A DNA stretch of 61,662 nucleotides, filler included, from Candidatus Babelota bacterium (GCA_017999075.1; 13 parts of 13 records of this genome joined end to end with filler, not necessarily neighbours in it), one strand, 5' to 3'; counted from the first letter of the whole stretch, positions 6,090 through 14,661 are shown. Numbers and translations are program-made. Notes: generated from the letters alone by a model not told the origin.

Positions 6090-6207
6090 TGCGCAAGTAT
6101 ATTTTTCNNNNNNNNNNNNNNNNNNNNNNNNNNNNNNNNNNNNNNNNNNNNTTAATTAATTAANNNNNNNNNNNNNNNNNNNNNNNNNNNNNNNNNNNNN
6201 NNNNNNN

Positions 6208-6324
6208 ATATTTGGGCAAACAATTTTTCTTTAAATTATTATAAACTGTTTTTCTTGAAATACCCAGCATTTCAGCAATTTGTGTTTGAGTTAAACCTTT
6301 ATTTAATAAACTTTTTATTTCCAT
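6208..6324 (-). CDS. Helix-turn-helix protein N-terminus, resembling IS21-family IstA; truncated by contig end (not in ORF track)
   Basis: Translates MEIKSLLNKGLTQTQIAEMLGISRKTVYNNLKKNCLPKY, preceded by AGGAGG SD. Confidence 0.65.
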
Positions 6325-6343
6325 GTATTCCTCCTATGATAAA

Positions 6344-6349
6344 TATCAA
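6344..6349 (-). promoter_or_regulatory. -35 half (TTGATA) of IS110 circle-junction promoter
   Basis: After circularisation at AGGAG it lies exactly 17 nt from TATGAT (7884-7879). Confidence 0.65.
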
Positions 6350-6606
6350 TATTTTTTATAAATAACCTACACTTTGTATTTTTAACACAATAATTACATT
6401 GACAAATGTCCTTAAATTTTATATTTAATTATTTGCCTCTTGCTTTTTGCTTTTTTCAGCCGTTTTAACCATTCGGCTGTTTTTATCTTTGAAGCACAGG
6501 CAAGGGGTTCCTATAAAAATATAAAACCTCTTTCAAATCAAAGGAAAAAACATAAATAAAAATGGTTCGGGGTTTGGGGCAGAGCCCCAATATTATTTTT
6601 CCCTTT

Positions 6607-7635
6607 TTATATTTTCTTTAATTCAAAGTTCTTGAAATTTTCAAACTCCCAATTATTTTTTAACGTTTTATATATAATTCCTAACATTTTTCTTGCTGTT
6701 GCTATTATCGCTTTACCTGCGCCTCGTTTTAACTTTATTCGTTTATAAAATTCTTTTATATGCGGAGAAAACTTCATCGCTATCAGAGTTATTTGCACTA
6801 ATGTCGTTCGTGCTATTTTATTTCCGAATTTTGTTATATGTCCTCGTTTTTGTTTTCCGCCACTGTCATATCCACGTGGTACTATTCCGAAATATGCAAA
6901 CAATTTTTTCTCGCTGGCAAAATTCATTATGTTCCCGATTGTATTCAGTAAGATAGACGCACTCAATGTTCCGATTCCGGTTATACTTATTAAATTTTTG
7001 AACCCGTCCATTTTTTGTCCGTGTTTTTCAATCTCTTCGTCAAGCTTTTTTATCTGCTCATTTAACGCATGTATCGTATCTACAATATTGCCTACTACAA
7101 AACGATTCGTTTCGCTAATTCCTTTTACTAACTTCACTTCTTCCAACTGTTTGCGGCTTCCGAATGTTTCGCGTTCTGTTACAATGCCTTCACTGTTCAA
7201 TATCCCGTGAAGCTGGTTCTTTAATGTGCTTCGGCATTTAACAAGTTTGTCTCGCGTGTTTATCAAATTTTGTATTGCTCGTTCATCTTTGTTTTTCATA
7301 CGTATTTCCGGTATCATATCTTTTTTTAAAAATTCGCTGATAGTTTCAGCATCTCGTTTATCAGTCTTGTTTACTGATTCGCTTATTACTTTAAACTTAT
7401 GCGTGTTTATCACTTTAACCGTTTTTACCAAACCTGAAATCTGATCATAAAAATATCCTGTATTACCGCTCGATTCAACCGCAACTTCACACTCTTTATT
7501 CAATTTTTTTTTGAATAGCGCATATCCGACCGCGTCTGTTTTATATTCCGTCGTTTTTTTTCGACCCTTATCGCTAATCCAGCACACTGTAAAACTTCGT
7601 TTGTGTAAATCTACACCTGCATATCTGTAATTCAT
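6607..7635 (-). CDS. IS110-family transposase/recombinase (DEDD RuvC-like + Tnp20 domain)
   Basis: GVDLH, VAVES, KTDKRDA (D-E-D-D), ITGIG, YFGIVP..YDSGGK (catalytic Ser), ITKFGN, KAIIATARK. Confidence 0.96.
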   Translation of the reverse strand: MNYRYAGVDLHKRSFTVCWISDKGRKKTTEYKTDAVGYALFKKKLNKECEVAVESSGNTGYFYDQISGLVKTVKVINTHKFKVISESVNKTDKRDAETISEFLKKDMIPEIRMKNKDERAIQNLINTRDKLVKCRSTLKNQLHGILNSEGIVTERETFGSRKQLEEVKLVKGISETNRFVVGNIVDTIHALNEQIKKLDEEIEKHGQKMDGFKNLISITGIGTLSASILLNTIGNIMNFASEKKLFAYFGIVPRGYDSGGKQKRGHITKFGNKIARTTLVQITLIAMKFSPHIKEFYKRIKLKRGAGKAIIATARKMLGIIYKTLKNNWEFENFKNFELKKI

Positions 7636-7644
7636 CTTAACCTA

Positions 7645-7872
7645 CCTCCGCTTAAAATATTTTAAAATTCCGCAGAGTAGATTATTTATTGCGACTTGGG
7701 TTCGTCTTACTCCTATCCAGGCATTAACGCCTATATTGGCTTTTACGACAGCAGGTGGCAAGATTACTCTCCTTTCCCGGGTTCTTTTATGACCCACAAA
7801 AAATAATCCAATCTGCTGCCTTCTACTCCGCGTTGTTTTATTTTACTTCGCGAAGTTAACCCGCGCTATATT
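7645..7872 (-). ncRNA. Putative IS110 bridge RNA (seekRNA) with target- and donor-binding loops; ends approximate
   Basis: GC-richer non-coding left end. Outer stem 7832-7822/7681-7671 and two internal-loop hairpins. Guides AAAGGAG (7775-7769) and ATAGGAG (7716-7710) match the left flank and right end. Confidence 0.75.
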
Positions 7873-7878
7873 TTATTT

Positions 7879-7884
7879 ATCATA
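7879..7884 (-). promoter_or_regulatory. -10 half (TATGAT) of IS110 circle-junction promoter
   Basis: 4 nt inside the left end; pairs with TTGATA of the right end at 17-nt spacing in the circle. Confidence 0.7.
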
Positions 7885-7911
7885 CCATCTCCTTTTTTTA
7901 AAAATGAACAA

Positions 7912-8826
7912 TTAAAACCAGTCAATCAAAATTTTTAAATCTTCAATATCTCCGTTTTCGATTTCAAGAGTGAAAAGGTTCAGACCCTTTTCTTTCAGCT
8001 TTCTTACGATAGGCTTTAAATTTTGGGAACATTCATTATAAAGATGGGAATGAGAATCTCTGATTTTAGTTTTTTCAGTGACTTCAGTCATTAAATTATG
8101 ATTTAAATGAACCCCGAAAATTTTTTTTTTTTCTATTATTTCTTCGCATATTTCATAAAAATTAAAATTATGAATCAGAGAAGAGCACCATAAATGTCCT
8201 GTATCTAACCATAAATTGTCTATAAGTTCAAATATTTCTATAGGTCTTTGCAGACCGCTTCCCACTCCGACAAAATCATTTTCAAAACAAATTATATAAT
8301 CAGGATAACAATTTCTTAAAAATAAATAATTGCGTTTGAATATATTTTTATAATATTCGAATTCTTCAGTTTCGAAAAAAGAAGGATTCATTATAAAAGA
8401 TTTATCAAGGCAATATTTTTCAGGGATATTTGCCCTTAAAATTTTTCTGTAGTTTGCCATATCATGAGGTATCAAACGATCTGTCATAAAGAAACCATGG
8501 GAAAAAAATATGTTGGTGTCGAATATTTTAAGGTGATTTACAGCATTGGCACTTTGTTTTTTGATATTTTCAAAATCAGGATGAGCAAGATTGAAAAAAT
8601 ATTCCGCAAGCACAGGAGAATGAACTGTAAACCGTATATGGTTTTTTAATTCCAACAACTTGTCATATAGATTTTTTGTTATAGAATTATGGATTTGAAT
8701 GCCGAAATTAAACCCTGCCAGTTCGGCAATTTTTTTTGCTTCAGATATCTTAGATAAATAATTATCTTCATTCAGACACATTGAACTGTATTCTACAGTG
8801 ATTTTTTTATTAAACAAATCAGGCAT
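7912..8826 (-). CDS. Xylose-isomerase-like TIM barrel (sugar phosphate isomerase/epimerase family)
   Basis: Metal-ligand motifs TVHSP, FEND, WLDTGH, VHLNHN..DSH, TLEI. Confidence 0.7.
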   Translation of the reverse strand: MPDLFNKKITVEYSSMCLNEDNYLSKISEAKKIAELAGFNFGIQIHNSITKNLYDKLLELKNHIRFTVHSPVLAEYFFNLAHPDFENIKKQSANAVNHLKIFDTNIFFSHGFFMTDRLIPHDMANYRKILRANIPEKYCLDKSFIMNPSFFETEEFEYYKNIFKRNYLFLRNCYPDYIICFENDFVGVGSGLQRPIEIFELIDNLWLDTGHLWCSSLIHNFNFYEICEEIIEKKKIFGVHLNHNLMTEVTEKTKIRDSHSHLYNECSQNLKPIVRKLKEKGLNLFTLEIENGDIEDLKILIDWF

Positions 8827-14640: not shown

Positions 14641-14661
14641 TGATAAAGGAGGAAAAATATT

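Follow-up and report, generated by a model that had tools for sequence, protein, structure and literature searches.

The insertion sequence and its parts

The window, i.e., the whole stretch of 61,662 nucleotides that was analyzed, carries an intact insertion sequence (IS) on its minus strand, placed between a Shine-Dalgarno-like sequence and the start codon of a helix-turn-helix (HTH) open reading frame (ORF). The element, its principal parts, and its surroundings are as follows.

6331 to 7888, minus strand: intact insertion sequence assigned to the IS110 family, 1558 bp, with the right-hand copy of the AG core counted in
6607 to 7635, minus strand: intact gene of the transposase (bridge recombinase), 342 amino acids, identified by Pfam and NCBIfam matches
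6331 to 6606, minus strand: right end, 276 nt, with TTGATA (6344 to 6349), the subterminal repeat (6335 to 6345), and TAGGAG (6331 to 6336)
7874 to 7884, strand not assigned: left subterminal inverted repeat TATGATAAATA, an 11-nt arm including the −10-like TATGAT (7879 to 7884)
7889 to 7899, minus strand: AAAAAAAGGAG, the left half of the target, which resembles a Shine-Dalgarno sequence and closes with the core AG (7890 to 7889)
6209 to 6330, minus strand: right flank with the spacer GAATAC and the ATG (6322 to 6324) of the HTH ORF, which is cut by a contig joint
14645 to 14651, plus strand: unoccupied AAAGGAG, a candidate target that precedes the ATG of a 365-codon ORF by 10 nt

The transposase contains the domains DEDD_Tnp_IS110 (PF01548, E value of 3.7e-18) and Transposase_20 (PF02371, E value of 1.5e-20) and scored 242 bits against the NCBIfam model NF033542, "IS110 family RNA-guided transposase," which has a cutoff of 140. 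Similarity to IS621 and ISCro4 was distant (E value of about 1e-12), with the best stretch in the C-terminal half. Residues D9, E54, D92, and D95 were invariant among 26 aligned transposase sequences and are matched in IS621 by the stretches GIDxxK, xIEATG, and KTDxxDA, and the serine of YDSGG (a motif beginning at residue 256) is matched by YESGS of the same protein; from the catalytic residues of IS621, we take these positions to be the catalytic D-E-D-D set and the serine of the Tnp domain. Judged by these matches, the element belongs to the IS110 family of bridge recombinases. No second copy of the IS was found within the window and no antisense ORF spanning the IS, the longest plus-strand ORFs inside it encoding 87, 93, and 72 amino acids.

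The bounds of the element were set where, at both junctions, its alignment with the 91%-identical copy L001 ends. They are matched by the junctions seen clade-wide, and a 1589-nt public contig covers positions 6330 to 7898. Read along the minus strand, the left junction consists of AAAAAAAGGAG (7899 to 7889) followed by ATGGTATGAT, i.e., a left flank ...TTTTTAAAAAAAGGAG (7899 to 7889) and then the left end of the IS, ATGGTATGATAAAT..., whereas at the right junction ...TTGATATTTATCATAGGAG extends to position 6331 and is followed by GAATAC and the ATG (6324 to 6322). The ORF starting there matches HTH_23 and similar Pfam families. The two arms of the subterminal inverted repeat, 7874 to 7884 and 6335 to 6345, are 100% complementary and lie 4 nt from each end. 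All features named in the original prediction were encountered, namely, both junctions, the TAGGAG right end, and, in the RNA described below, an AAAGGAG guide with a U-rich opposite strand. Most left ends of the clade (in the window, for example, 7888 to 7880) place ATG-NNN-TGA/TAA or a similar sequence directly behind the host AAGGAG, a frame of two or three codons at zero spacing from the Shine-Dalgarno sequence that may merely reflect the −10 box.

Insertion sites of the element and its relatives

More than 1300 relatives of the transposase were present in a large protein collection, the closest being 91%, 64%, and 62% identical and all others at most 56%. A contig scan with the single protein as the query retrieved no relative, whereas alignment-based scans succeeded and yielded 527 and 540 encoding stretches. 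The best 80 of each were taken, giving 160 loci of 46 to 91% identity, which are thus the best-scoring ones of more than 1000 relatives. Those located in genomes came from MAGs labelled Omnitrophota, Zixibacteria, Leptospiraceae, Acidobacteria/Terriglobia, Planctomycetota, Calditrichota, and others, and one from a MAG labelled Bathyarchaeota. Left ends could be placed in 153 loci, as could right ends in 153.

Left flanks were counted if they measured at least 16 nt, which left out fourteen loci. Among the 138 distinct ones, AAGGAG stands at the end of 115, AGGAG of 123, GGAG of 127, and AG of 130. The bases upstream of this hexamer are unrelated, even between copies of one genome. The 15 flanks (of 138) without a terminal AGGAG fall into three groups: about eight belong to left ends that are unplaced or damaged (L012, L015, L029, L089, L127, L153, L158, and L160), four are near-cognate (L007, L037, L069, and L148), and three adjoin elements with a changed guide (L003, L021, and L056). 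At the opposite side, 150 of 153 elements finish with CATAGGAG, so that AGGAG occurs at both junctions; the two copies can be told apart by the sixth base upstream of the junction, consistently A on the left and T on the right.

Beyond the right junction, the insertions are followed by gene starts. These were called by a simple ORF rule and not by homology, in that an ATG, GTG, or TTG had to lie 3 to 13 nt past the junction and to open an ORF of at least 50 codons or one running off the contig, in flanks of at least 25 nt. By this rule, 113 of the 136 distinct right flanks contain a start codon with its ORF, 111 of the 113 start codons being ATG, and with a threshold of 25 codons the count rises to 120 of 136. 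The spacing between junction and start peaks at 6 nt and is 5 to 7 nt in 87 of the 113 cases. When the same rule was applied to control positions in the same flanks, gene starts followed 59 of 199 AAGGAG motifs (30%), 142 of 591 AGGAG motifs, and 2351 of 20000 random positions (12%). The transposase gene and the downstream ORF are co-directional in every case; the insertions therefore sit inside the ribosome-binding site (RBS) of a gene read in the same direction, mostly 5 to 7 nt before its ATG. The compilation of insertion sites proposed along with the original prediction, including the comparison of gene-start frequencies, thus supports the interpretation that the IS targets Shine-Dalgarno sequences and restores them. 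The outcome that would speak against this, sites lacking AGGAG or showing no enrichment at gene starts, was looked for across the 160 best-scoring loci and was not found. As far as these aligned loci can tell, chance is excluded as the origin of the pattern.

The rule left 23 of the 136 right flanks without a gene start, and at L002, L022, L023, and L026 there is no start codon nearby at all. L022, L023, and L026 represent one IS type with AAGGAG left flanks and no start codon within 13 nt on the right; the contig of L023 begins at the hexamer, and the three loci exemplify non-Shine-Dalgarno or degenerate sites. The upstream context was mixed in a crude look at 66 sites, with a co-directional ORF ending less than 200 nt away in 25, a divergent one in 10, both in 17, and none in 14.

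Genomes with several copies behave alike. The 4.3-Mb genome of L091 (G001) holds 11 identical copies, and 11 of the 11 sit at AAGGAG-N5-7-ATG; of its 499 AAAGGAG motifs, 132 have an ATG at a distance of 4 to 9 nt. The corresponding arrangement was found at 7 of 7 sites in a Leptospiraceae MAG, 5 of 5 in an Anaerohalosphaeraceae MAG, and 4 of 5 in a Blastocatellia MAG. As an aside, AAAGGAG is about half as frequent in G001 as the reversed word (499 versus 990). In the window itself there are 8 AAAGGAG sites, of which 3 lie upstream of ORFs of at least 50 codons. The matching unoccupied site that had been pointed out at 14645, AAAGGAGGAA, is real and lies 10 nt upstream of its ATG as listed above.

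For the IS species of the window, defined by copies at least 90% identical, every other left flank found ends in AAGGAG, namely, that of L001 and those from the public runs X1, X2, and X3. L001 is a metagenome contig with an independent insertion of a 91%-identical element. On the left, this element borders a CRISPR array, the last repeat of which terminates in ...GATTAAAAG with GAG behind it; on the right, TAATTATT and then ATG adjoin. In this contig (L001:1-346), the IS stands directly behind the last CRISPR repeat (ATTTCAATTCCACAATGGTTCGATTAAAAG, at least 5 copies), and the repeat end provides the AAAAG of the target AAAAGGAG. The public contigs came from four wastewater, activated-sludge, and digester runs and contributed the further left-flank ends AAAAAAAAAGGAG (X1), TTTCTTTAAGGAG (X2), and GATAAAAAAGGAG (X3) as well as right flanks such as GAATACGA in X2, again followed by ATG.

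The same contigs provide alleles free of the IS. Record 28 of X5, a 190-nt contig, covers positions 7889 to 8068 and is preceded by ten non-IS bases. Since AAAAAAAGGAG is present in this IS-free contig, it belongs to the target and not to the IS. On the minus strand, the contig continues with TAAATGTTAT and not with the GAATAC found in the window. Conversely, records 9, 17, and 24 (2.1 to 2.4 kb) contain the HTH gene without the IS, behind ...GATAAAAATGGAG; 126 nt of the right flank recur IS-free on these public contigs, at depths of up to 88. Record 19 of X3 holds an IS copy whose left flank is the HTH-gene context, with A instead of T at position −5. These data suggest that the pair of junctions seen in the window may be an assembly chimera, its left flank (on the side of a TIM-barrel gene) and its right flank (the HTH gene) coming from different IS copies, and the balance tips slightly toward this explanation. 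The IS is multicopy in the runs that contain it, the contig depth in X1 being about 30 over the IS versus 7.6 over the left flank, i.e., about 4 times higher, and a contig joint, N-TTAATTAATTAA-N with a six-frame stop linker, lies at 6108 to 6208, 122 nt from the IS; because of these two observations, the flanks of the window are somewhat more probably derived from two copies of the element than from one. A search for the native partners of both flanks elsewhere in the window gave neither. Against a chimera, the runs may not be the source sample of the window, contigs can drop rare variants, and true recombination between two IS copies would yield the same arrangement. The window being made of concatenated contigs, gene order across 6108 to 6208 is not evidence of linkage. 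Each of the two junctions is real; the single empty site AAAAAAAGGAG plus GAATACATG that had been reconstructed from them probably is not and would instead combine halves of two insertions.

Two further observations concern the HTH gene. Its ORF (6209 to 6324, minus strand) reaches a depth of up to 88 in the public contigs versus about 4 to 8 for neighboring single-copy sequence and may itself lie in a mobile or repeated element; among its Pfam hits are HTH domains of the resolvase and IS30 types. In addition, the occupied site in X3 record 19 reads AAAAGGAG and the IS-free site in records 9, 17, and 24 reads AAATGGAG, the two differing at the fifth base upstream of the junction. The T allele AAATGGAG could escape the guide, or the difference could be mere strain variation.

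The bridge RNA, its guides, and its predicted transcription

The 249 nt between the left end and the transposase ORF, which begins 253 nt past the left junction, fold far better than shuffled sequences (z-score of −4.5). An alignment of 46 diverse relatives supports a consensus RNA structure of 33 pairs, 19 of which show compensatory changes. In this alignment, 95.9% of the cells assigned to pairs are paired, compared with 85.4% after column shuffling and 30 to 47% with slid partners, and 168 cells with double changes were observed versus 45 expected, a value reached by 0 of 500 shuffles. The RNA begins with a 5′ hairpin, which is followed by two stem-loops with internal loops. Its relevant segments are given below.

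7660 to 7866, minus strand: structured bridge RNA region, from folding and covariation
7747 to 7820, minus strand: target-binding loop with the outer stem GGCAGCAG/CUGCUGUC and a hairpin at 7778 to 7796
7797 to 7807, minus strand: 5′ strand of the target loop, U-rich AUUAUUUUUUG
7769 to 7775, minus strand: 3′ strand of the target loop, AAAGGAG, the same as the seven left-flank bases that adjoin the element
7700 to 7744, minus strand: donor-binding loop with the 5′ strand GCC (7738 to 7740) and a hairpin at 7718 to 7733
7710 to 7716, minus strand: AUAGGAG as 3′ strand of the donor loop, the same sequence as in the right end (6331 to 6337)

Many conserved G-U pairs fit the transposase-sense strand, and the RNA is therefore considered to be transcribed in this direction. 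An RNA on the opposite strand was rejected on the basis of the same pairs and of the direction of the junction promoter, and the 282 nt downstream of the transposase gene, which would be the place of a guide RNA in the style of IS1111, were rejected as they fold like shuffled sequences (z-score of −1.66). No Rfam family matches the RNA; a hit to CrcZ (E value of 0.83, 13 bits versus a gathering score of 95) is a chance match. An inverted repeat of 28 nt with 79% complementarity (6358 to 6385 and 7662 to 7689) connects the right end with the 3′ part of the bridge RNA region, and the heptamer GAGTAGA occurs near the right end and also in the RNA of many relatives.

In both loops, the strand matching the left half and the core is located on the 3′ side. 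For the target loop, this match is general within the clade, as the 3′ strand equals the six bases of the flank in 121 of 133 related elements. Five elements possess variant guides, and in three of the five the flank is changed likewise, to ATGGAG in L003, AAAGAG in L021, and AGGAAG in L056; the left ends of the remaining two could not be placed cleanly. By comparison of guide and flank, L003, L021, and L056 are three independent natural reprogrammings of the guide. They also delimit the crossover: as the flank and the right end have just GAG in common in L021 and just AG in L056, AG (CT on the other strand) is regarded as the core, and the clade lacks a pattern of target-site duplication. In the donor loop, the GCC columns of the 5′ strand covary with positions 3 to 5 of the left end, and one of the pairs shows 17 double changes. 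Because the left-end positions precede the likely start of transcription, the covariation is taken to reflect pairing between the RNA and the right half of the donor DNA.

On its 5′ strand, the target loop is variable across the relatives and often U-rich, and right flanks vary freely within multicopy families. No position-specific covariation of this strand with either flank was detected for 99 sites from 77 families (maximal Z of 2.9), and a complementarity matrix of the 5′ strand against 28 flank positions revealed no diagonal. A statistical signal is nevertheless present. The longest run complementary to the core and right flank is 4.14 nt on average versus 3.70 for permuted pairings (z-score of 5.1), and in a comparison with control windows of the same locus (n = 92) the mean was 4.16 versus 3.1 to 3.6 (Wilcoxon P values of 1.5e-3 to 1.5e-7); part of this signal may be composition, a U-rich RNA being compared with A-rich spacers. 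In L021, the 5′ strand perfectly matches the 9 nt directly after the core. Two parses of the target loop, successful at 129 and 126 of the 153 loci, missed the window and L001, so that these statistics describe relatives other than the IS species of the window. Of the proposal that the U-rich strand pairs with purine-rich right flanks, a weak statistical pairing was thus recovered, but not a position-by-position correspondence.

Transcription of the RNA was considered for both states of the element. If the ends are joined in silico, TTGATA and TATGAT are brought to a spacing of 17 bp and together match 10 of 12 promoter positions; of 106 junction types, 39 score 9 of 12 or better, and 71 conform to a less strict pattern. 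TTGATA (6349 to 6344) would accordingly belong to the usual circle-junction promoter of IS110 elements. The notion that it offers the downstream gene an outward −35 was not confirmed as stated, since it pairs with the left-end TATGAT only in the joined ends, and in the integrated state the position matching the −10 falls on ACATGG, which is not a −10 box. No contig spanning a circle junction was seen among the contigs of the public runs. A minus-strand search past the transposase stop codon, as far as the IS end, gave no terminator-like site; together with the brevity of the right ends, which measure at most 70 nt in 123 of 153 relatives, this makes read-through into the downstream gene plausible. 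On the plus strand, a terminator-like hairpin with a T tail is situated at 6574 to 6590, antisense to the transposase gene and just past its stop, where it would stop transcription entering the IS from the far side.

Proposed mechanism and relation to known systems

The reading that we prefer, with a probability of roughly 80%, is that of an intact IS110-family element guided by a bridge RNA whose target guide is the Shine-Dalgarno consensus itself. The guide, AAAGGAG in the window and AAGGAG clade-wide, repeats the sequence of the DNA that borders the element on its left and would hence pair with the opposite strand, CTCCTT. By analogy with IS621, the RNA would bridge target and donor in a recombinase complex, and strands would be exchanged at the AG core; since the guide order is reversed relative to IS621, mechanistic details of that system may not transfer. 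Recognition would be one-sided, the 5′ strand of the target loop adding just loose pairing to the A-rich spacer, which means that any strong Shine-Dalgarno sequence could serve as a landing site. As the right end finishes with ATAGGAG, the downstream gene keeps GGAG at unchanged spacing, and the right-end AGGAG has presumably been retained because it preserves downstream translation, to the benefit of the host gene. In the excised circle, the right-end −35 and the left-end −10 would come together as a promoter from which the bridge RNA and the transposase gene are expressed. Once integrated, the element would rely on read-through from a host promoter, with host transcription and downstream translation continuing.

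Taken together, these elements would form a multiphylum IS110 clade with a guide fixed on the Shine-Dalgarno sequence, a relaxed other half-site, a spare Shine-Dalgarno sequence in the right end, and a guide order reversed relative to that of IS621; they would insert in the sense orientation, borrow host transcription for an otherwise promoterless RNA and recombinase, and leave downstream translation intact. We hold this combined picture at even odds. If true, each strong RBS in any host would be a landing pad, and the element would be a natural bridge recombinase with a short guide and half-site recognition.

Selection acting on completed insertions could account for all of the enrichment at gene starts. 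In that case, the guide would find any AAGGAG, intragenic insertions would have been lost, and the right-end AGGAG would be a relic or a mechanical requirement. This proposal differs from the preferred reading solely in the cause of the enrichment. It is compatible with a conserved guide that spans only 6 to 7 nt, with the failure to detect a strict guide for the right flank, and with the finding that about 30% of the AAGGAG motifs in the flanks precede ORFs versus 83% of the insertions, as purifying selection would produce. We nevertheless consider it rather unlikely: CATAGGAG is kept in 150 of 153 elements over a range of 46 to 91% protein identity, even where the guide has changed (L003, L021, and L056), donor and target of IS621 need only the core in common according to the part of PMC11208160 dealing with this point, and the 5′ strand of the target loop somewhat favors the spacer side (the mean run of 4.16 versus 3.1 to 3.6, n = 92). 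Far less probable still is that AGGAG, despite its presence at both junctions, is a terminal direct repeat or target-site duplication with coincidental matches to the RNA, given that the IS-free contig already has AAAAAAAGGAG, that the sixth base upstream of the junction is A on the left versus T on the right, that the L021 and L056 junctions have just GAG and AG in common, and that the sequences of both loops agree with the junctions to the exact base and covary.

Under the preferred reading, a guide RNA spelling the Shine-Dalgarno sequence would supply the mechanistic reason for an observation made in 1997, i.e., that some IS110-family elements lie between the Shine-Dalgarno sequence and the start codon, and the habit of targeting this sequence would be widespread outside mycobacteria. 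For the biology of insertion sequences, it would be a case in which a mobile element picks an abundant, universally conserved functional motif while repairing its own damage. For the engineering of bridge recombinases, the clade offers natural RNAs with reversed order, a conserved guide of 6 to 7 nt, and a seemingly loose second half-site, and it bears on the amount of pairing needed and on the risk of off-target events. In annotation, a gene behind ...CATAGGAG and an IS110 transposase gene should be regarded as an intact gene with a donated RBS.

The closest known parallels are IS900 and IS901 of Mycobacterium avium. IS900 has the hed ORF on its complementary strand, which uses host signals, and its orientation is opposite to that of the target gene, whereas here the transposase gene and the target gene are co-directional and an IS-spanning antisense ORF like hed is absent (plus-strand ORFs of 72 to 93 amino acids). 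The elements described here also differ in being spread across phyla. As in the present clade, IS900 and IS901, likewise of the IS110 family, use an AAGGAG-type RBS motif upstream of a start codon: they insert between the Shine-Dalgarno sequence and the start codon, according to a passage of PMC2942039 that cites Doran 1997 and Inglis 2003, and a section of PMC8141618 gives the IS900 target motif as CATGNNNNNNTCTCCTT, the reverse complement of which is AAGGAGA-N6-CATG. The same section states that IS900 insertions are rarely located in coding sequences, with only three genes disrupted. The literature searched yielded no explanation of the IS900 target by a bridge RNA. Targeting of an RBS by IS110 elements was met in the literature searched for IS900 and IS901 only, and none of the full texts searched connects the guide of a bridge or seek RNA with the Shine-Dalgarno sequence; supplementary target tables may do so. 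Neither RBS nor Shine-Dalgarno is mentioned in the main text of PMC11208160 or in that of the preprint 10.1101/2025.10.25.684509.

With IS621 and ISCro4 (structures 8wt6 and 9t56), the element shares the DEDD RuvC-like and Tnp domains and an upstream RNA with target and donor loops; a core dinucleotide (CT on one strand) is a further feature in common with IS621 as presented in parts of PMC11208160, and the circle-junction promoter described there would have its counterpart in the one predicted in silico here. The order of the guides is reversed relative to IS621, as the strand for the left half and core lies on the 3′ side here, and IS621 reads about 11 to 14 bp of a REP-type target, whereas only 6 to 7 conserved bases are evident in the present clade. 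A reversed guide order relative to the IS110 type is described for seekRNAs of the IS1111 type in sections of PMC11187229. Elements of this type (ISEc11, ISKpn4, and ISPa11) have subterminal inverted repeats and a transposase of about 340 amino acids in common with the element studied here, but their noncoding region, by the same sections, is found downstream of the gene for the transposase, in contrast to the covarying upstream RNA found here, and they target attC, REP, and similar sequences instead of ribosome-binding sites. Having the reversed order and subterminal repeats, yet an upstream RNA, the clade mixes features of the IS110 and IS1111 subgroups. Insertion at Shine-Dalgarno sites has already been published for IS900 and IS901; what is new is its explanation by a guide RNA and its extension to a large clade with reversed guide order and sense orientation.
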